Below are positions 4,668 through 60,538 of a stretch of DNA of 64,000 nucleotides, piece by piece. The number at the start of each line of letters is the position of its first letter. The first letter of the stretch is position 1. The stretch covers positions 147,498,001 to 147,562,000 of the forward strand of contig OZ024743.1 in NCBI GenBank assembly GCA_964016885.1, given 5' to 3'. The notes beneath the pieces are model-generated. The model searched no databases, had not been told where the DNA came from, and was given only the letters and a program-made list of their open reading frames with translations. This DNA is from Eledone cirrhosa. Its lineage: Eukaryota. Position numbers and translations under genes: made by a program.

Positions 4668-7600
4668 GTGGTATGGAGGTCGAACCACCCGACCTTCACA
4701 AGACCCCGGGAGGTAAGTAAACCTTCCCTCTCTCTTTTATCTTGCCAACATGGCCATATTAAGAGTAGGAAGTTTAAATGTTCGCTGCCTGGGGTCTCCC
4801 TGGAAGCAGGGTCGCCTGCTCAACGACCTCAGGTCGCTGGAAATGGATGTGATTGCCGTCAGCGAGACCAGAATTTCCGACACGCGCGCACTAGCCCCCA
4901 TTTTCGACGACTATCAGATCTTCGCATCTATTAGCAGGCCGGGAATGGGAGGTGGGGTGGCAGTGCTGTTTATGAAAGGACTGGATCTCGAGGTAAGGTA
5001 TCTTCCGGGATCCGGACGGTAAGTTAGTGGTCTTGGATGTGAGCAGTAGCGAAGGTGATGTCTTTAGACTTCTGGCCGTCTACGCCCCTACAGGGGCCGG
5101 ACAACAGGACTTCTTTAGGGGCCTGGAGACCTTTCTGGGTACGTCTCGCCCTTTACTGTTAGCGGGGGACTGGAATGGCATCTTAGACGCACGCTGGGAT
5201 TGTGTGGGAGTAGCTGATAGGAGCCGGGGGTGTAAAAGCCAGTTCCAACTGTCTGACAGGTATCGACTAGATTTCCCCAATGTGCCAGTATGGACATGGA
5301 ACAACCGAATGGGGTCATCTAGATCGTATATAGACAGGATCTTCATTAAGAAAATAGATAGAAATAGTGTAGGCTGCCCACTTTTTAAAACGGTCGCCTA
5401 TTCAGATCACAAATTTGTGATCTGTACGGTCGACCTAGATAAAACGCGTAGGTTAGGACCGGGTTACTGAAAGCTGAACATGTCATTTCCGGCACGTAAG
5501 GCTTACAGTGATCGAGTCAACAATTTAGTTAAGCAAAAGTTGACAGGGGGATCATCAACAACAGATGGGGAGGGGCTCTCAAAAGAGAGATTAGAGTAAT
5601 TTCGATAGAGCTCAGCAAAGAACTAGCGTTAGAGAAAAATAGAAAGCAGGGGGAGCTGGTAGATAAGTTAGACGAGGCTATTTGTAGTGGCATTGCAACT
5701 GCCGTGCTAGCGGCGAGAATTGCATTGGACCATTTCTTCAATGCGAAACACGAAGGTTGCAATGTCAGATCTAAGGCGCGTGCGCTGAGAAACGAGGGAA
5801 CCAAAGCTGTTCGATGGGCCCGCGTGGCGGAGGCGCAGTGTGGTAATAAAACCACAATTCGGTCTCTTGCGGACCGAGACGGACACGAGATAAGCGATTC
5901 CAAGCGGATGTGTGAGGCCTTCTGCCAGCACTTTGCTCGGTTGTTCGGGGAGAGTGGCGAGTCAGAGAGAGTAGCGGATTTCAGGCCCTACCTTGACGGC
6001 TTGCCGCGCATCTCGAAAGTCGACACTGAGCGCTGCGAAAGACCAATTACTTCAGCCGAAATTCAGGACGCCCTTGTCGGCTGCATGAGGCGCAAGTCAC
6101 CCGGTTTGGATGGCCTGCCCTACGAGCTTTACGTAAATATGCCAGACTTGTTCTCCAATCTCCTCGAAGCACTCTACTGCAATTGGCTTATGCGGACGAC
6201 ATCACCATGATGGTGTCGAACACCTCAGAAATCGAGGTAGTCGGCACCTTATTCAAGGAATATGAAAGGCTCACAGAAGCCAAACTTAACCCTGAAAAGT
6301 CGGTGGGCTTGCAGCACGGAACCTGGAGAGGCAGGCCCATGCCGTCCAACAGCGTCGTGGGGCGCTGGACGGACTGGTAAAGTTGCTCGGGGTTTGGTTC
6401 GGACCACACCTCCAGGTGGAAAAGAATTGGGATGAGGTAAAGAGCAGAGTAGCCAGTCTCACCCAAAAATGGGCTGGGAGGAAGTTATCACTGAAAGGTC
6501 GTGCGGATGTGGCGAATGCGTACATCGCGTCCGTCATCTACTACCGACTGATCGTCGTGCCTTGCCCCAGTCCGCACCTCGTCAAGTTAGAACGGCTCCT
6601 CTTCAAATTCTTGTGGAGGGGACAAGTTCCGTTGGTGAGGCATTCCATCTGCTGTCAGCACCCTCTACGCGGAGGGCTGGGCATGCCGTGGCTAATGATG
6701 GGCAGACATGCGTTGAGGCTGCGACATCTCCAGATATTCTGCCTAAACGGTGAACAGGTCTGGTCGCCGTTTATCAGACGGGCCTTTCCGCAGCTGATTT
6801 CTTTGACTGAGCTGCAGTCCTGGGTCAAGAAAAGACCGAGACTCGGTGACTGGCACCTGGAATGTTGCCAGGCACTCACTGCTCTCTACCAAGCAGGCAA
6901 TGTGATCAGTGGAATTTCCACTCTCGAGTTCTATAGAGGATTAGTGGTGGGCAAGTGCGATGACGCACTCGGAGAAGCTTTGGACCTCGACGAAATCGAA
7001 CTGGCCAGTCTGTACCGGAGGACTTTCGAGCCGGGGACGATGGACAATTTCCAGAAATCTCTCGCTTGGAAGTGCTACCGGGGGGGGGGGGGGGGCACTG
7101 CCGGTTCGGAATAAACTCTACAGGCACGGAAGTGCTGTCAGACGGACATGTCAAGATGCGCACAGAAGGACGAAACCGTTCTGCACGCACTTGTCCAATG
7201 TCCGTGCATTACTGACTTGTGGAGTTATGTTGAACAGCTACTGTCGCGTGTGGAACGAATCCTGCTATCGGCCAAGTCCATAGTGAAGAGCGACCCGCCG
7301 CCCTCCTTAAGTCAGGAAGAGCAGGACATTTTCCTCTGTCTAGTGGCAGTTGCGAAGGAGGTTATATGGTGGACCAGATTAATAGGACTGAAGACAGACA
7401 CTTTTCTCTTCGGCCAATCCCTCATCAACTTCTTCAAGTTTCACCCGGAAAGGAAGGCGAGGGTGGAGAGAGAAGTGCTGCACCCCAGTACATTTGCTAA
7501 AAGGTGGATGAATGTGGCGAGAATGGCTCGTGTGAATTGGCCTACTCTGACCATGCGCCTATAGGCTAGCTAACTTGGGGAGAGGGGTGCTCTCCCTGGG

Positions 7601-10836: not shown

Positions 10837-10900
<64 letters not shown>

Positions 10901-11134
10901 CTACTATAGTTCATAGTAACAGTCCGGCTGCTGTCTTCTTAACAAACCACTCTTCACTGATTGACCTCGATGTCACATGATTGATTCTTTTGAATTTGCC
11001 ACCGACGCAGTAGGCAATGATTTTTTCACTGGCTCGGAACTTAGTCCACGCTTTGCTTTTTTCCATCCGGTGAATTATTTTTGTATAAGTTCCCTGTGTC
11101 CACGTATTGCCTGGAAACTTAGCTGAGAATAGAC

Positions 11135-11213
11135 TTCCCTGATGATGAAAGGCTTCTCCGTACGTTTCTTCGGAAACTACGTTTATTCCCTTTCAGAAAC
11201 TAATTAGTTGGAG
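11135..11213 (+). ncRNA. Type I hammerhead ribozyme, long stem II
   Basis: TTCC-CTGATGA-TGAAAGG[36 nt]CCTTTCA-GAAA-CTAATTAG-TT^GGAG. Confidence 0.87.
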
Positions 11214-11266
11214 TGAAATTTTAGTAAGTAAGTTAATTTTTATAATTTTCTAATTTTACGTCTCTC

Positions 11267-11369
<103 letters not shown>

Positions 11370-11610
11370 TAAACTGCTACTATAGTTCATAGTAACAGTC
11401 CGGCTGCTGTCTTCTTAACAAACCACTCTTCACTGATTGACCTCGATGTCACATGATTGATTCTTTTGAATTTGCCACCGACGCAGTAGGCAATGATTTT
11501 TTCACTGGCTCGGAACTTAGTCCACGCTTTGCTTTTTTCCATCCGGTGAATTATTTTTGTATAAGTTCCCTGTGTCCACGTATTGCCTGGAAACTTAGCT
11601 GAGAATAGAC

Positions 11611-11689
11611 TTCCCTGATGATGAAAGGCTTCTCCGTACGTTTCTTCGGAAACTACGTTTATTCCCTTTCAGAAACTAATTAGTTGGAG
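11611..11689 (+). ncRNA. Type I hammerhead ribozyme (duplicate of 11135)
   Basis: Identical motif in the second duplicated unit. Confidence 0.87.
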
Positions 11690-11742
11690 TGAAATTTTAG
11701 TAAGTAAATTAATTTTTATAATTTTCCAATTTTACGTCTCTC

Positions 11743-11913
<171 letters not shown>

Positions 11914-31604: not shown

Positions 31605-31821
31605 CCTATCTCACCCCACTCTATCCGTATATATATATATATGAAATTAGGGCCCAGAACCCAACGAAACTTGAGTACCTATACTTATCTATGTCACTGT
31701 AGTAATTATTCATACTAAACTCGTCCTATGGACTGAGTGCTCTTACTCTTGGATATTTCCACTTAACTTTTACTTCAGTGTATATATATATAGTTATGTA
31801 ATAAACAACATAAGGCAAATA

Positions 31822-31883
31822 TTTTATTTACCAGTGGTTTCTTAAAAGCAAAAAAAAATTTGCTTTCAATCATCAGAATGAAA
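31822..31883 (-). ncRNA. Type I hammerhead ribozyme
   Basis: Mirror of 31970-32031. Confidence 0.88.
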
Positions 31884-31969
31884 AAATCCTGGTTTATTTA
31901 TTGACGTTGGATTTAAAAAACCTTTTTTAAGGTTTTTAAAATCCAACATCAATAAATAAACCAGGATTT

Positions 31970-32031
31970 TTTCATTCTGATGATTGAAAGCACATTTTTT
32001 TTTGCTTTTAAGAAACCACTGGTAAATGAAA
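31970..32031 (+). ncRNA. Type I hammerhead ribozyme
   Basis: TTTCATT-CTGATGA-TTGAAAGCA..TGCTTTTAA-GAAA-CCAcTGG-TA^AATGAAA; all three stems pair. Confidence 0.93.
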
Positions 32032-32124
32032 TAATTGCCTTATGTTGTTTATTACATAACTATTAATCTCTGTTACCTACATAGAGCACTCTTTTTTCCT
32101 GGACTTTTCCGACCGACTTACTTC

Positions 32125-33081: not shown

Positions 33082-33110
<29 letters not shown>

Positions 33111-33112
<2 letters not shown>

Positions 33113-33715
33113 CTACGATTTGTCATATCCACAAAGTACGAGCGAAACTATCGATAGTCGGGACAAGAAGAACTTTGGTAAAATTTATCTACATCTTTTT
33201 TTCAAACTTACATTTTAGACTTAGCTCCGTTTAATTCATTATTTGTCCAGTTAATTCCTACGAACTAAGAGGAAAGACTAGGTAAATTTTATCTGAATGT
33301 TCCTCACAGAGGAAAGTCTGTGACATTTATCTGTTATTTCTTCAAAGTTACATTTTAAACTTAGCTCCGTTTATATGATTATTTAGTCAGACCAAATATA
33401 ACCAATTCCTTTCCTCCTTAGTCCGTAGAAATCAACTAGATAAATAATCATATAAACGGAGCTAAGTTTAAAATGTGACTTTGAAGAAATAACAGATAAA
33501 TGTCACAGACTTTCCTCTGTGAGGAACATTCAGATAAAATTTACCTAGTCTTTCCTCTTAGTTCGTAGGAATTAACTGGACAAATAATGAATTAAACGGA
33601 GCTAAGTCTAAAATGTGAGTTTGAAAAAAAGATGTAGATAAATTTTACCAAAGTTTTTCTTGTCCCGACTATCAATAGTTTCGCTCGTACTTTGTGGATA
33701 TGACTAATCGTAGTA
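33111..33715. repeat. ~270 bp-arm inverted repeat with internal ~140 bp direct repeat
   Basis: TACTACGATT...GATTATTT pairs with AAATAATC...AATCGTAGTA; ACATTTTA(G/A)ACTTAGCTCCGTTTA occurs twice per arm. Confidence 0.95.
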
Positions 33716-33746
33716 TAATCCATGAGGTTTCGAGCGTTTCAAGAGA
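33663..33746 (-). ncRNA. Variant hammerhead-like motif (core UUGAAAC)
   Basis: Minus strand: TCTC-TTGAAAC-GCTCG[long loop]CGAGC-GAAA-CTATtgATAG-TC^GGGA. Confidence 0.55.
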
Positions 33747-33879
33747 GTCCCTCAGTTAGGACCAAAGTTTCTAAAGTCATCGCCGCCACTAATGAATTCA
33801 AAAGGGGTGAAAATCATATCTATATATATTCACACATACATACATCTGTGTGTGTGTGTGTGTGTTAAACAATAAATTA

Positions 33880-47188: not shown

Positions 47189-47251
47189 ATTACATTTTAT
47201 TATACATATTTCGGATGTACAACAGTACGTCCTCATCAGACAACATATAAT
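47189..47251 (-). ncRNA. Type I hammerhead ribozyme
   Basis: Minus strand: ATTATATGTTGT-CTGATGA-GGACGTAC-tgtt-GTACATCC-GAAA-TATGTA-TA^ATAAAATGTAAT. Confidence 0.88.
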
Positions 47252-47330: not shown

Positions 47331-47393
47331 ATTATATGTTGTCTGATGAGGACGTACTGTTGTACATCCGAAACATGTATAATAAAATGTAAT
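47331..47393 (+). ncRNA. Type I hammerhead ribozyme (one stem III mismatch)
   Basis: Mirror copy with GAAA-CATGTA-TA. Confidence 0.82.
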
Positions 47394-52228: not shown

Positions 52229-52917
52229 TAAAAAAATCAATCTGTGAATGCAGAAGTAAATATTTCGAAAAACGTTGTAGCCGAAGGAAAATGTATGTGT
52301 GTTGTGGCTTAGTGTATTAGTGTGTGCCGTTACTTGTATGTGTGTGTGTGTGGATGGTTAGGGTTGGAAATTCGATGGACAAGATAAGAGCGTGTAGTCA
52401 AATCCAAGGTTAAAGGCGAATCATAGGAAGAGGAAGTGAAATAGAAGGATGGCGCGCTCAACCGGAAGGAGTGGTCAGTTGAAAGAGTGGAAGAAGTTAG
52501 TGATAACAGGAGTAGTGTGAGAAAGAGGTGATTGAGGCTTCTATATGTATGTGATGGAGGACGTGTATGTGTGGAGGATTTAGCGGTGGTCTGTACAGGC
52601 AGGTGTGTGTGAGTGGATAAAACTGTGAGTTGCGTGTATATATATATATATGTATGTGTTTACAGAGGTATGTGTTTGTGTGTGTATATAACCCAATGGT
52701 TTTATGGGTAGATATTGTCGGTGTGTGTCGGAAAGACCATCTCTCTCGCTGTTTACATATATACATAAGCGTATGTACGCCTATACTCTGGGTGTATGTG
52801 TGTTTGAGGGTATAAGTGCATATATGCTTTTGTGTAGTGTACGAATAAAATGAACTTAACCAAGTGTGTGGTAGGATACGTGGCGGGTGGGTAAGAGACG
52901 TGGAAATTATTAGGAAG

Positions 52918-52956
52918 CTGATGATTTCTCCCGAATGAAACAGTTCTATTCCTGTA
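52918..52956 (+). ncRNA. Hammerhead core lacking a pairing 5' stem I strand
   Basis: CTGATGA-TTTCtcccGAAT-GAAA-CAGttctattcCTG-TA^; downstream tail shared with short (TA)n-flanked pieces at 12014-12058 and 55386-55447. Confidence 0.65.
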
Positions 52957-55464: not shown

Positions 55465-56470
55465 ATATATTATAAAGCTGACGGTCGTATGTAGGTAACA
55501 CACTTTTCGCCAAACGGCTGGACCAGAAAACACCACATTTGCACAACAGATGTAACTTCTTCAAAGTAAGAAAGTGAGGGTATTTTCGTTTTCTAAATTT
55601 CGTTGAAAAGTTTAAAGATATGTTATCGTTTATTTAAATATTCAATTCTTTAAAATTTTCAAGTGTCAACACTTCCGGTTGTCTTCACGAACCAAAGTAT
55701 TGTGTTCCTGTTTTCCTTCAGTTGCAACGTTTTTCGAAATATTTTCTTCTGCGTTCACATATTTTTTTTTTTGTTTCAGAAGATCCCGCTAAGGGTGAAA
55801 GCAGCGATTATTTGCTTAAACTTTAATCTTTTATTTTGATATATATATATGTATATATAATTATATATTCGCGTACAGATATTTTTGCATACACAAAAAC
55901 AAAATATAAACAAACGTATTTATTTCACGAAAGCACATATGGCTTATCGTCATTGTTACTGCTGATATGCCGCCAATAAATTCCCAGCCTGGCCGCAAGA
56001 TTAGATTTTCCAGAAGAAAAAATGTCACTAGAGCAACAGAGAGTCTAAGCTTTGCGATTACCATCAATAAAGCTCATGGTCAATTGTATGTAGGATGCTC
56101 CAGGGTGAGCTCGCCAAACAATCTCTTCATCTTTGCTCCCGAGGGCCGAACAAAAAATATTGTATACTCTGAGGCTCTGACAATGTAATTTATGTATTTT
56201 CTGTTACTTGGAATTTCCATTATGGTTGTACAAATTATTGTAAAGTTTGTTAAAAATGTATTCTCTGTTCAGCCTTTATTGTTGTAACTATCAATTTTCT
56301 TTAACGTACTGGCTGCTGAACTGGGGAATTATATAAGCCCAACACCAGAACACGTTAACTCCCCCGCCCCCACCCTCACTGACTTGAGAGGGCGTGCGGT
56401 ATCTCTGCACTGGAGTGAAAAGTGAAATGCCGGTATACCTAGCCGGACGCCAGGCCGATGGGCCAGCTAG
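55465..56470 (+). mobile_element. Internally deleted Helitron with Pif1-helicase C-terminal remnant
   Basis: FAITINKA|HGQLYVGCSRV...TKNIVYSEAL; GC-rich 3' tract ending CTAG|T at 56470; Helitron-like 5' TATAAAGCTG...AAACGGCTGGACC. Confidence 0.85.
55773..55821 (+). ncRNA. Hammerhead-like motif, U4A variant, nested in the Helitron
   Basis: GTTT-CAGAAGA-TCCCgctaaGGGT-GAAA-GCAGcgattatTTGC-TT^AAAC; all three stems pair. Confidence 0.72.
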
Positions 56471-56494
56471 TATATATATATATATATATATATG

Positions 56495-56563
<69 letters not shown>

Positions 56564-56853
56564 AGTCCATAGAATCCATTAGATAAAATATATACAGTAT
56601 TTCTTCTCCCAATCTGCATAAATCAGCCACACAAAAAATCATTTAAACGAGGCTATAAGTTTAAAATATACTTATGAAGAAATAATAGGTAAATGATATA
56701 ACTTATTATCCGCGACTCACAGCTACAGAAAATTTATCCAGTCTTTCTGATAGCCTGTAGAAATTGATTAGACATATAGTTAACCATACATAATTAGGTA
56801 CAAAATTAAAGTTAGAAGAAAAAATGTACATAAACATACCAAAATCATCAACA

Positions 56854-56938
56854 TATCTCTACTACCGGCAGTTTCATTCCATCTTTGGTTATATCCGATC
56901 TTGGATAAATCAACGAGATTGGAAATCATCAGGAGATA
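56854..56938 (-). ncRNA. Type I hammerhead ribozyme, long stem II
   Basis: Minus strand: TATCTC-CTGATGA-TTTCC[..]GGAAT-GAAA-CTGCCGGTAG-TA^GAGATA. Confidence 0.93.
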
Positions 56939-57348
56939 AACTCAATTGGACAAAGATTTTTCTTACAAAATCTCCGCCAGAAACGAATTCAAAATGGCTA
57001 AGAATCGTCACGTGGCTAGTGGTCAAGGCAGAAAGTTTGTGATTGGTGCCTGTAGGCGAGTAGGCTGGTTGCTAGAGAGCGCAGCCAAATATGATTTCCA
57101 ATCTCGTTGATTTATCAAAGATCGGATATATCCAAAAATGGAATGAAACTGCCGGTAGTAGAGATATTTTGATGATTTGGGTATGTTTATGTACAATTTT
57201 TCTTCTAACTTTAATTTTGTACCTAATTATGTATGGTTAACTATATGTCTAGTCAATTCCTACAGGCTATCAGAAATACTGGATACATTTTCTGTAGCTG
57301 CGAGTCGCGGATAATAAGCTATATCATTTACCTATTATTTCTTCATAA

Positions 57349-57538
57349 GGGCGGTGAATTGGCAGTATCAGTAGAGGGTTGGACGCCATGCTTTCTATCT
57401 CAGTTACGTCCCTTTACGGTCCGAGTTCAAATCCCGCCGAGGTTAACTTTGCCTTTCATCCTTACGAGGTCGATAAAATAAAGTACCAGTAATGTACTGG
57501 GTAATTGCTGGCCTTGTGCCTAAAGTAGAAACAATTAT
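57349..57538 (+). mobile_element. tRNA-derived SINE with 15 bp TSD
   Basis: ATTATTTCTTCATAA at 57334-57348 and 57534-57548; the empty site is visible in the opposite arm (~56672). Confidence 0.95.
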
Positions 57539-57785
57539 TTCTTCATAAATATGTTTTAAACTTATAGCCACGTTTAAATGATTTTTTTGTGTGGTTTATT
57601 TATGTTGATTGGGAGAAGAAATACTATATATATTTTATCTAATGATTCTATGGACTTATTCTTTATATATTGCTCTGATTGCTAATTATTTATTTAATTA
57701 ATTCGTCATTGAGCTATACCGTCAATGGTTGCCAAAAATATACATATATCTATTGCTCTGTCTAGTTTTGTGTATATACCCTTTA

Positions 57786-57834
<49 letters not shown>

Positions 57835-57976
57835 TATTGAAGTTTCCGTTGAAAATTGAAAAAGTCATAGGAATGAAGAGTACTCTATGTAAGTACCAGT
57901 ACCGTCTTAACGGCATTCCTGTCTTAACGACATCACAACTTTCTCCGCTTGGCCTGTTCCCTCCCTTTTGGAACTG

Positions 57977-58012
57977 TCCCCCGTTGATGGGCGTGAGCCC
58001 GAAATATTGGGA
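57977..58012 (+). ncRNA. Degenerate minimal hammerhead-like motif
   Basis: TCCC-CCGTTGA-T-GGGCgtgaGCCC-GAAA-TA-TT^GGGA; two core substitutions. Confidence 0.45.
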
Positions 58013-58240
58013 TTAAATCTCCACTACGGTAACCCTTCTCCCTTTGTTTTGTTTTCATCTTTGTCTCTCTCAATTTTCACTTTCACCTGTTTTTCCTATC
58101 TATCTTTCACTTCCTACCTCGAGATTTCCCTCTGCATTGTTGTGGCTTTCTTAACTACGTATTTTATATATATATATATATATAGAGAGAGAGGGAGTGA
58201 ATAGATATACAATTTAGCTTCAGTCATATTTGCATACACA

Positions 58241-58678
58241 TATGTATTGGAATTTCGGAATTTCAGAATAAATATGATATGCTTAAAATAAACATTTAGA
58301 GAGCCGTAGCTATGCCAAAACACCAGCGACTAACGTCGTCCGGCGGTGTACACCAGAAGCAAAGGGGACAATCTTGGATGCATATTTCGAACTGAACTGG
58401 TTCTCATATACAAATGAGATTAATCACCTCATTTACACAGACGCGAAAACCATATATTCTCGCCTGTTTTCAAAGTCTAGCTGTTCCAAGAGTAGGAGGG
58501 ACCGTGCTTATGAGAACCAGTTCAGTTCGAAATGCGCATCCACGATCGCCCCCCTTGCTTCTGCTCAACACTGCCAGACGACGTCAGTCACTCGTGTTTT
58601 GGCATAGCCGCTACGGGTCTCTAAATGTTTATTTTAAATATACCGTATTTCTTCTGAAATACGAAATTCTAATGCATA
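58241..58678. repeat. ~165 bp-arm diverged inverted repeat with ~100 bp spacer
   Basis: ...TTTCGAACTGAACTGGTTCTCATA pairs with TATGAGAACCAGTTCAGTTCGAAA... Confidence 0.9.
58503..58544 (+). ncRNA. Type I hammerhead with G5U substitution (probably inactive)
   Basis: CGTG-CTTATGA-GAACcagttcaGTTC-GAAA-TGCGCA-TC^CACG. Confidence 0.75.
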
Positions 58679-58679
58679 C

Positions 58680-58746
<67 letters not shown>

Positions 58747-58747
58747 C

Positions 58748-58787
58748 ATATACATAAACTAGACAGAGCCATATATATATATATATT

Positions 58788-58868
<81 letters not shown>

Positions 58869-59895
58869 TTTTGGCAACCATTCACGGTGTGGCTCAATGA
58901 CGAATTAATTAATTAAATAATCAACAATCAGAGCAATATACAAGAAAGTATGTCCATAGAATCATTTGATAAAATATATACATTATTTCCTCTCCCAATC
59001 AGCATAATCAACCACACAAAAAATCAATTAAACAAGGCTATACGTTTAAAAAGCATCTATGAAGAAACAATAGATAAATAAACGATAGCTATTTTATCCG
59101 CGATCAACAGCCACAGAATATTTACCCAATATTTCTAATAGCCCGTGGAAATCGATTAGATATATAGCCAACCATACACAATTAGGGACAAAATCAAAGT
59201 TGGAAGAAAAAATCTATATAAGCATACCAAAATTATGTCTCTACCTCATCAGGTTTCATTCGCTTTTTGGAAATATCCGAGCAAGGTTAAATTCAGGAGT
59301 TTCGAAATCATCAGGAAACAAACTCAATTGGACAAAGATTTTTCTTCAATGATCCCCGCCAGAAACGTATTCAAAATGGCTAAGAACTGTGACGTGGCTA
59401 GTGGTCAAGTCAGAAAGTTTGTGATTGGTGCCTTACGGCGAGTGGGCTGGCTGCTAGAAAGCGCAGCCGAATATTGCCTAAATTGTTTCTCAACCATATG
59501 GGATATTATAAAATATATAGATTTAGATATACATAAATTAGACAGAGCAATATACATTTGATAAAATATATACAGTCTTTCCTCTCGCAATCAGCACAAT
59601 CAAACAATGCTTATATACATTTTTTCTTCTAACTTTAACTTTGTACCTAATTGTGTATGGTTGTCTATATATCTAATCGATTTCCACGGGCTATTAGAAA
59701 TATTGGGTAAATATTCTGTGGCTGTTGACCGCGGATAAAATAGCTATCGTTTATTTATCTATTGTTTCTTCATAGATGCTTTTTAAACTTATAGCCTTGT
59801 TTAATTGATTTTTTGTGTTGTTGATTATGCTGATTGGGAGAGGAAATACTGTATTTATTTTATCAAATGATTCTATGGACATACTTTCTTGTATA
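58748..59895. mobile_element. Diverged relative of the 56559 element, again with an inverted arm (59606-59895)
   Basis: Colinear similarity to 56559-57090 and 57540-57775; TAGACAGAGC terminus repeated at ~58760 and ~59539. Confidence 0.88.
59236..59320 (-). ncRNA. Type I hammerhead ribozyme
   Basis: Minus strand: TGTTTC-CTGATGA-TTTCG[..]CGAAT-GAAA-CCTgatgAGG-TA^GAGACA. Confidence 0.93.
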
Positions 59896-59950
59896 TATAT
59901 ATATATATATATATATACAAGGGTGTGTATGATTGTGTATAGAAGATTAT

Positions 59951-60468
59951 ATTCATAAAAGGAATTCCAACTTTGTCTGATTTGCCCGTTTTATTTACAA
60001 TCCTTTAAAATATATAATTGTTTCTACGTTTGGCACAAGGCCAGCAATTAACCAGTGCATTACTGGTACTTTATTTTATCGACCCCGTAAGGATGAGAGG
60101 CAAAGTTATCCTCGGCGGGATTTGAACTCAGAATGGCAAGAGCCGAAACTCTATGCGTCAAAGCATGGCGTCGACCCTCTACCGATACTGCCAATCCACC
60201 GCCCTTAAAATATATAATGGTATTAGAATGAAATAGTATGGTAGAATATTAAATGTTAAGTGTTAATTAAACAAGTACTTTCATGTTTTCAATTAACACT
60301 TAACATTTAATATCCTACCATACTATTTCATTCTAATACAATTATGTTCAATTAACACTTAACATTTAATATTCTACCATACTATTTCATTCTAAAACCA
60401 TTATAAATTTTAAAGGATTGTAAATAAAACGAGTAAATCAGACAAAGCTGGAATTCCTTTTATTAATA
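59951..60468. repeat. Inverted repeat with a SINE in the left arm and a ~58 bp duplication in the right arm
   Basis: AAAAGGAATTCCAACTTTGTCTGATTT pairs with AAATCAGACAAAGCTGGAATTCCTTTT; TTCAATTAACACTTAACATTTAATAT occurs twice. Confidence 0.9.
60015..60204 (-). mobile_element. tRNA-derived SINE with 14 bp TSD
   Basis: TTAAAATATATAAT at 60005-60018 and 60205-60218. Confidence 0.95.
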
Positions 60469-60474
60469 TATATA

Positions 60475-60538
<64 letters not shown>

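Follow-up and report, generated by a model that had tools for sequence, protein, structure and literature searches.

This locus raises the question of whether two hammerhead-like motifs on the minus strand of a 64,000-nucleotide stretch of the Eledone cirrhosa genome (GenBank assembly GCA_964016885.1, contig OZ024743.1, positions 147,498,001 to 147,562,000; the whole stretch is called the window, and its first letter is position 1) are functional ribozymes under selection and, if so, where that selection acted. An initial annotation of the window had taken the covariation between the two motifs as evidence of function. Comparison with further copies in this microsatellite-rich 3.0 Gb genome points to a more specific answer. 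The motifs, hammerheads A and B, have the hammerhead fold and sit in two subfamilies of a non-coding repeat of about 700 nt, likely a non-autonomous Penelope-like retroelement (PLE) of the non-LTR retrozyme type (LTR, long terminal repeat), and their compensatory changes likely reflect selection that kept the ribozyme working in that repeat's source elements. We regard this reading as a whole as probable, though well short of secure. The repeat itself, its tandem and inverted copies, their (TA)n ends, the pair-keeping changes on shared branches and the points at which copies end can be read directly from the DNA. The two motifs lie as follows.

56854-56938, minus strand: hammerhead A, type I, given to the outer ends of the motif; C3 at 56932, predicted cut after A17 at 56860.
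59236-59320, minus strand: hammerhead B, type I, laid out as A; C3 at 59314, predicted cut after A17 at 59242.

In both, a 6-bp helix I is followed by CUGAUGA, a U, a 4-bp helix IIa and a 40-nt extension, after which come the 3′ strand of helix IIa, a U, GAAA, helix III, GUA and helix I again, with CUGANGA, GAAA and NUH in order around three helices and helix I open, as in a type I core. The initial annotation had the sequences right: on the minus strand, stem I is TATCTC/GAGATA in A and TGTTTC/GAGACA in B, stem II is TTCC/GGAA and TTCG/CGAA (in RNA, helix IIa UUCC/GGAA and UUCG/CGAA), and CTGATGA, GAAA and GTA are identical in the two. The letters of stem III with its loop, CTGCCGGTAG in A and CCTGATGAGG in B, are also as it gave them, but B's stem III is in part peculiar to this copy or uncommon: the subfamily majority has ACCUCAUGGGGU, and the window copy carries the loop GAUG and a U-A pair where the majority has U.G. 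A and B are unlike at 24 of 85 positions. Despite changes at nine of the 26 stem positions (four double changes and one C-G to U.G), all 13 pairs are intact, an outcome that nine random substitutions produce in 768 of 2,000,000 trials; covariation across all three helices is thus borne out.

At positions 10.1/11.1 both motifs have U.U in place of the R10.1-Y11.1 pair that closes helix II, and stem II begins one base after its start in the standard consensus; a strict hammerhead descriptor missed A and B because of this U.U. The U.U is a known tolerated variant (PMC3088659, PMC7229834), a natural U10.1-U11.1 case being reported in the former, and so marks a variant without excluding type I membership. 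Rfam gives no match in the window at the gathering score, and its 39 matches at E ≤ 10 within 56000-60500 include no hammerhead family; hammerhead A scores 95 bits against the family model by construction. An alternative short hammerhead in B (CUGAUGA-UUUC-GAAAC) was ruled out by eye, having neither helix I nor a cleavable triplet.

The tree of copies indicates where selection acted. Fixed differences assign A and B to separate subfamilies, and both are ordinary tips of the family tree, for which 151 copies were aligned, the 135 with a full downstream part were kept, and changes were mapped by parsimony. In helices I, IIa, IIb and III, 14 changes on branches with at least four leaves keep or restore pairing and two break it, whereas on terminal branches 73 keep it and 96 break it (Fisher p=0.001 for shared against private changes); outside this count are the branches with two or three leaves (two kept, two broken), five changes at unpaired sites and the palindrome centre. 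One of the two broken shared changes is a double change split over nested nodes, and the other is a G.G at 15.4-16.4 that is common in subfamily A. Pairing kept on shared branches and broken on private ones argues for filtering in source elements, with single copies left to decay. Selection therefore likely acted on the source elements of the two subfamilies, and the window copies, whose private changes break pairs about as often as neutral decay would, likely decay; B's own changes fall in hairpin IIb, in loop III and at the pseudoknot end. Function under selection, as first proposed, is retained for the pairing, but appears to belong to those source elements and not to these two copies.

A separate alignment of 40 copies from six groups has 85% of its cells paired and 70 cells with double changes, compared with 23 in shuffles and 4-31 in slid controls; its counts for hairpin IIb are too low because IIb is misaligned for families D and E. 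The two per-pair counts, weighed below, do not exceed those of shuffles. The core pattern CTGATGATTT-N42-46-AATGAAAC has 576 matches in the genome against none in a reversed control, which, with the tree test, the excess of double changes and the 13 intact pairs, supports the view that the motifs are not chance matches. A further pattern search gave 304 matches against eight in the reversed control.

The set extends beyond A and B. Family E (66% identical to A) has the core CUGAAGA and G-C or A.C at 10.1-11.1, and family J (62% identical to A) has the core UUGAAAA (U3-A8), G10.1-C11.1 and a cut at GUC; both were fetched by DNA similarity, so that their cores were not fixed by the selection of copies. 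The U3-A8 swap has been reported for schistosome PLEs (PMC4209133). Families D, F, H and I share the layout and the U.U of A and B with no BLAST similarity to A, F and H being related to each other. Positions 10.1-11.1 are thus U.U in A, B, D, F, H and I and G-C in J and part of E.

The long insert of helix II, described at first as diverging while the core stayed fixed, does differ at 12 of 40 positions between the two window copies, but at only seven of 40 between the subfamily consensuses (flanks, 45 of 466), and its private change of 3.7 per site is close to the 4.1 of the flanks. Nor is it mere filler: it contains a hairpin and a predicted pseudoknot strand and gives the strongest covariation of the family set. 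Judged from these comparisons, the insert turns over yet keeps its pairings. Folded freely, the commonest helix II region of A, D, E, F and I forms IIa and, beyond an internal loop, the distal hairpin IIb, and that of B/G, C, H and J forms IIb but not IIa. The elements concerned are the following.

56892-56907, minus strand: distal hairpin IIb of A, UAUCC/GGAUA, in the predicted fold.
59274-59289, minus strand: hairpin IIb of B, with one private mismatch.
56939-56944, minus strand: predicted pseudoknot 5′ strand of A, UGAGUU; partner 56914-56919 (AUCUCG), giving 4 bp, a U.U mismatch and a U-A.
59321-59326, minus strand: predicted pseudoknot 5′ strand of B, UGAGUU; partner 59296-59301 (AACUCC), giving 5 bp (6 bp in the subfamily majority).

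The internal loop opens with bases that, in each of the seven families tested, can pair with the flank directly 5′ of helix I. Flank and insert read UGAGUU/AACUCG in B/G, GUGAGUU/AGCUCGU in C, GAGC(U)/(A)GCUC in E, UGAGG/CCUCA in J, UGAGAA/UUCUCG in D, GAGAA/UUCUC in I and GGAAAA/UUUUCC in F and H; A has only UGAG/CUCG. Cognate Watson-Crick helices total 36 bp over the seven families, equalled by six of 5040 permutations (one of 120 in a five-family test), but these figures flatter the case because the windows were set after several families had been seen and because families are related (F with H; A with E and J; D and I have identical strands). Random windows reach at least 5 bp with a chance of 0.026. 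Family I served as a held-out case: one copy failed, and 19 of 24 copies passed with at least 5 bp. The pairing is set 5-6 bp outward along helix I and 4-6 bp outward along helix II, uses no core base and, in family D, where IIa is longer, moves outward with it. Contacts between helices I and II activate hammerheads, with a geometry described in PMC3088659, and we predict that the flank/insert pairing forms a pseudoknot once helices I and IIa form, placed as such activating contacts are.

Helix III shows a further regularity, being across the families a palindrome or near-palindrome of 8-12 nt with the centres CCGG, CAUG, UGCA, GUAC, GAUC, CGCG and UCGA. In the window it is represented by two strands.

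56861-56872, minus strand: helix III of A, a 12-nt near-palindrome, ACUGCCGGUAGU; predicted 12-bp self-duplex of −19.5 kcal/mol, no stable hairpin alone.
59243-59254, minus strand: helix III of B, ACCUGAUGAGGU; predicted self-duplex of −12.6 kcal/mol, against −18.4 kcal/mol for the subfamily majority.

A cross-duplex of A with B is predicted at −4.0 kcal/mol. Because a hairpin would leave the central bases unpaired, a CG-to-AU double change at the centre agrees with one monomer pairing with another, and the palindromes, as sequence, point to cleavage in the dimer; pairing between two monomers is the published model for PLE hammerheads. In the A/B clade, the 10 nt of helix III show 14.5 changes per site on terminal branches against 4.1 in the flanks, a rate inflated by building the tree without helix III. 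When copies of a single insertion are compared two by two (20 pairs), this stretch has 30 differences against 13.2 expected with base composition matched, and families D and E have no such excess. The A/B comparison had been put forward as the best evidence for functional ribozymes; stronger evidence lies in the change from C3-G8 to U3-A8, the changes at 10.1-11.1, the seven palindromic centres and the cross-family pseudoknot. We tentatively suggest that at least seven repeat families here may form a distinct structural class of animal type I hammerhead outside Rfam, with a bipartite helix II of about 50 nt, a flank pseudoknot and a palindromic helix III, peculiar to each family, serving as a code for self-recognition. 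If so, only like monomers would pair and cut (predicted self-duplexes of −18 to −24 kcal/mol, against −4 for A with B), which could drive fast turnover of helix III between source lineages.

What carries these hammerheads is visible in the surrounding repeat. A and B sit in one repeat, 82% identical over about 545 nt; the sequence past the 3′ end of this piece re-enters its 5′ start, so the unit is a monomer of about 680-720 nt. Same-strand hammerheads are spaced 680, 683, 698, 707 and 715 nt apart at five loci and 1084 nt apart at a sixth, with an inversion between them, and another locus is a tandem array with a landmark spacing of 716-718 nt. The pair described initially as paralogous is indeed the same repeat twice, but is not unique, its members coming from two subfamilies of an abundant repeat (a first look gave 2679 genome candidates with A and 3069 with B, which are not copy numbers). 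A non-coding unit with one type I hammerhead, repeated head to tail, is the retrozyme type. The parts around A and B are listed here.

56548-57092, minus strand: 5′-truncated monomer of subfamily A, ending in (TA)n at 56529-56558.
57091-57800, plus strand: inverted partial copy of A, in the parts 57091-57349 and 57534 to ~57800; 95% identical to A.
58740-59557 (outer limits approximate), minus strand: about one full monomer of subfamily B, 82% identical to A.
59607-59896, plus strand: inverted partial copy of B, downstream half only, 96% identical to B; (TA)n at 59892-59917.
56991-57046, minus strand: putative internal Pol II promoter motifs CCAATCA, CACGTG and GCCATTTT, upstream of the hammerhead.
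~56830-56845 and ~59215-59230, minus strand: splice-donor-like GT.

The inverted copy of A stands head to head with A, has a (TA)n end and is interrupted by a SINE-like (short interspersed element-like) repeat at ~57354-57540; it begins inside the hammerhead core and therefore lacks the 5′ arm of helix I and the CUG. In the monomer of subfamily B, the internal (TA)n is expanded, and more (TA)n lies beyond the 3′ end. An inverted or tandem partial copy on the 5′ side together with a (TA)n end recurs at many of 60 BLAST-selected loci and in both window insertions. While 5′ ends of copies are scattered, 141 of 249 3′ ends fall 300-319 nt past the cut and 41 of 249 at 440-459 nt, with none in the first 60 nt; these are BLAST ends, some from overlapping loci and some possibly breaks at TA runs. 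Truncation at the 5′ end, tandem partial copies, an inverted copy on the 5′ side, 3′ ends at fixed internal points and microsatellite targets make up the anatomy of a non-autonomous PLE, as described for PLEs in PMC8557442. No PLE open reading frame (ORF) motif was found within the repeat unit, and neither the unit nor the window region has the ORF with reverse transcriptase (RT) and GIY-YIG that would mark an autonomous PLE. The motifs at 56991-57046 we label as a putative CCAAT box, E-box and YY1 site, and CACGTG is likewise found upstream in families D, E and J. A splice-donor-like GT (GTATGT, GTGAGT, GTAAGT or GTAAAT) lies some 10-20 nt past the cut in most families, among them D, F, I and J as well as the window copies, and may mark a PLE-type intron. 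The SINE-like repeat itself is abundant, with about 15 copies in the window and A/B-box-like motifs; ARAGORN finds no tRNA in it.

In the account that best joins these observations, a tandem source copy would be transcribed from its internal promoter, and the RNA would fold with an extended helix II made of IIa, internal loop and hairpin IIb. The first bases of the loop would pair with the flank 5′ of helix I, and this pseudoknot would keep helices I and II parallel and make up for the U.U with which helix II starts. Palindromic helix III strands of neighbouring monomers would pair to form a double hammerhead, which would cut after GUA and release unit-length RNA, probably circularised. A Penelope RT/GIY-YIG protein acting in trans would copy this RNA from TA-rich internal sites 300-460 nt past the cut, as in an anole PLE, where reverse transcription starts internally (PMC11167929), and the copy would go into genomic (TA)n. 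The window copies A and B are likely decaying products of this cycle.

The protein has candidates in the genome, which holds intact-looking PLE ORFs of 784 codons and further long open frames. A young Neptune-like PLE at four loci has the 784-codon frame and an upstream ORF, with no canonical hammerhead in the 3′ region of the two copies examined; an older relative at two loci has a U3-A8 minimal hammerhead. Neptune-like PLEs, a second RT family and a third GIY-YIG family were each rejected as parent, having other hammerhead variants or none and no sequence in common with the monomer. Monomer pieces directly adjoin 5′-truncated PLE ORFs at five loci (at one of them, Pfam returns only sub-threshold RVT_1 for the ORF), and the PLE ORFs beside some copies belong to separate elements. 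We read these contacts as shared (TA)n targeting or template jumping between two RNAs, not as parentage.

Several results, besides the flattered permutation figures, weigh against the proposed cycle or its supports. In the 40-copy alignment, the number of pairs with double changes and of pair types is not above shuffles (285 and 328 of 500), and the invariant core of 93 pattern-selected copies is built in by the way they were found. Neither A nor B has the hammerhead as its minimum-energy fold, and neither of them exceeds shuffles in stability (z 0.35 and −0.12). The hammerhead fold of A is near-isoenergetic (−16.2 against −16.5), while that of B and of three further natural copies stands 4.6-9.7 kcal/mol above the ensemble, figures that contain no pseudoknot or dimer terms; A is thus predicted still to fold, and B less well. 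In subfamily A, the pseudoknot has only 3-4 bp (4 bp in 27 of 36 copies), and with A substituted for B/G 20 of 5040 permutations reach the score. Helix III has the non-palindromic centre AA in a 17-leaf clade and GUUC in four of eight H copies. No autonomous PLE sharing monomer sequence was found among 66 loci scanned with the family model, or by BLAST, with few of the genome's PLE families sampled, so the mobilising protein is inferred. Finally, the anole PLE inserts in vitro without need for hammerhead cleavage, and no RNA ends at the cut were seen in that work (PMC11167929).

This last result leads to the alternative that fares best, which we consider possible but distinctly less probable: the hammerhead does cut, but copying of the repeat starts from RNA that is uncleaved, whether multimeric or read-through, so that the ribozyme trims, tunes or rides along and no circle is needed. 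Copies do run across the cut site with none ending there, in vitro insertion of the anole PLE was unaffected by hammerhead mutations (PMC11167929), canonical hammerheads are absent from Naiad PLEs, which spread nonetheless (PMC8557442), and scans of the young 784-codon PLE of this genome found no hammerhead. Such copying is hard to square with a fold, pseudoknot and palindrome kept by compensatory change in at least seven families, and circular RNAs have been demonstrated for other animal retrozymes (PMC7229834). Three sets of contigs from a single sample, placed on a paralogous copy, gave no usable splice or circle junction and are taken as no evidence either way.

A second alternative accepts the flank/insert pairing but reads it as a nested hairpin that would lock away the core's 5′ half and hold the ribozyme inactive until it is refolded by dimerisation or by a protein. 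The same pairs could indeed enclose CUGAUGA as a hairpin forming first during transcription, and free folds often miss the hammerhead; still, the position of the pairing and its outward shift in D match the geometry of activating helix I-II contacts (PMC3088659), and the core bases are left unused, which makes an inhibitory role unlikely. Still less likely is the reading of A and B as host-selected (domesticated) ribozymes: both keep 13 stem pairs and an intact core, but they are ordinary tree tips, B carries changes of its own that break pairs in IIb, loop III and the pseudoknot, and private changes across copies mostly break pairs. A compensatory look arising without selection, by template switching in quasi-palindromes, CpG decay or chance, would suit the short, hypervariable quasi-palindrome of helix III and the C-G to U-A change of subfamily A (two transitions), but is very improbable with arms of helices I, IIa and the pseudoknot 20-70 nt apart, and mutational bias would not be expected to give the core U3-A8 swap or the contrast of shared with private changes.

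On the preferred reading, that source elements of a non-autonomous PLE were selected to keep their ribozyme working, the repeat falls between known systems. Animal retrozyme anatomy has been described (PMC7229834, Cervera and de la Pena 2020; bioRxiv 10.64898/2026.07.22.740005, Li et al. 2026), and a PLE origin has been proposed for non-LTR retrozymes. Like these, the repeat is a non-coding, AT-rich unit with one type I hammerhead, present as monomers, dimers and short arrays; its length lies inside their range of 51-972 bp but above the usual 150-450 bp. Axolotl HHR_Amex2 shares the U.U at the foot of helix II, and its cleavage is better in the dimer (PMC7229834). Unlike animal retrozymes, the repeat is mostly dispersed and 5′-truncated with inverted partners, its helix II of about 50 nt has an internal loop and a distal hairpin, and a predicted pseudoknot takes the place of the usual loop 1-loop 2 contact. 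With PLE hammerheads it shares the type I form, a palindromic helix III region, the dimer model, the U3-A8 core variant, many families per genome with compensatory changes and opposite-strand pairs 100-700 bp apart. It differs from them in a helix III of 8-12 nt, neither absent nor minimal, and in having no ORF attached, and A and B have U.U in place of the extra unpaired base before G10.1-C11.1; PLE hammerheads are described as lacking helix III or tertiary loop-loop contacts (PMC7761336). Pseudoknotted hammerheads (Perreault et al. 2011, PMC3088659) provide the third comparison, since there too 4-6 bp join the sides of helices I and II; such a pseudoknot is predicted in about 40% of hammerheads of all three types and raises activity. 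Here, by contrast, the partner is a strand from the internal loop of a long helix II, and the family is a repetitive one of type I from an animal; parts of that paper's analysis set aside type I motifs that are highly repetitive. In the literature covered, from which supplements and most subscription papers were absent, we found no account of this repeat and none, for animal type I repeats, of a flank pseudoknot joined to a long helix II in two parts, so a prior description is possible.

Penelope-type repeats are already known to carry hammerheads commonly, which makes the A/B finding as first written ordinary. What is added is the architecture, namely the long helix II, the predicted covarying pseudoknot and the palindromes peculiar to each family, carried by copies that number from hundreds to thousands and go unseen by Rfam in this window. 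PLE hammerheads have been described as minimal and slow; at least seven natural families with swapped core, closing pair, pseudoknot and palindrome make speed, dimer need and the family-specificity of dimers testable.

Other hammerheads lie elsewhere in the window.

33658-33751, minus strand: family J copy with a 12-nt palindromic helix III and a private A9 change; partner at ~33110-33170, plus strand.
31968-32033, plus strand, and 31820-31885, minus strand: inverted pair of a further hammerhead family, with U-A at 10.1-11.1 and helix III ACCACUGGU; also present at another genomic locus.
~47335-47390, plus strand, and ~47190-47250, minus strand: hammerhead-like inverted pair within a 293-nt palindrome, with G10.1-C11.1, a minimal helix III (ACAUGU) and an imperfect helix I.
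~58498-58555, plus strand, with a partner at ~58350-58408, minus strand: decayed minimal hammerhead family, between A and B.
~52909-52956, plus strand: second decayed minimal hammerhead family.

Intact-looking relatives of the two decayed families occur at other loci, one for the first and two for the second. At ~55970-56470, the broken C-terminal part of a helicase (FAITINKAHGQ...NIVYSEAL) precedes a GC hairpin and CTAG, which we take to resemble a Helitron 3′ end. A decayed non-LTR retrotransposon with endonuclease and RT-like ORF pieces occupies 4717-7564 on the plus strand, and a 476-bp tandem duplication of 99% identity at 10847-11847 is possibly an assembly duplicate.

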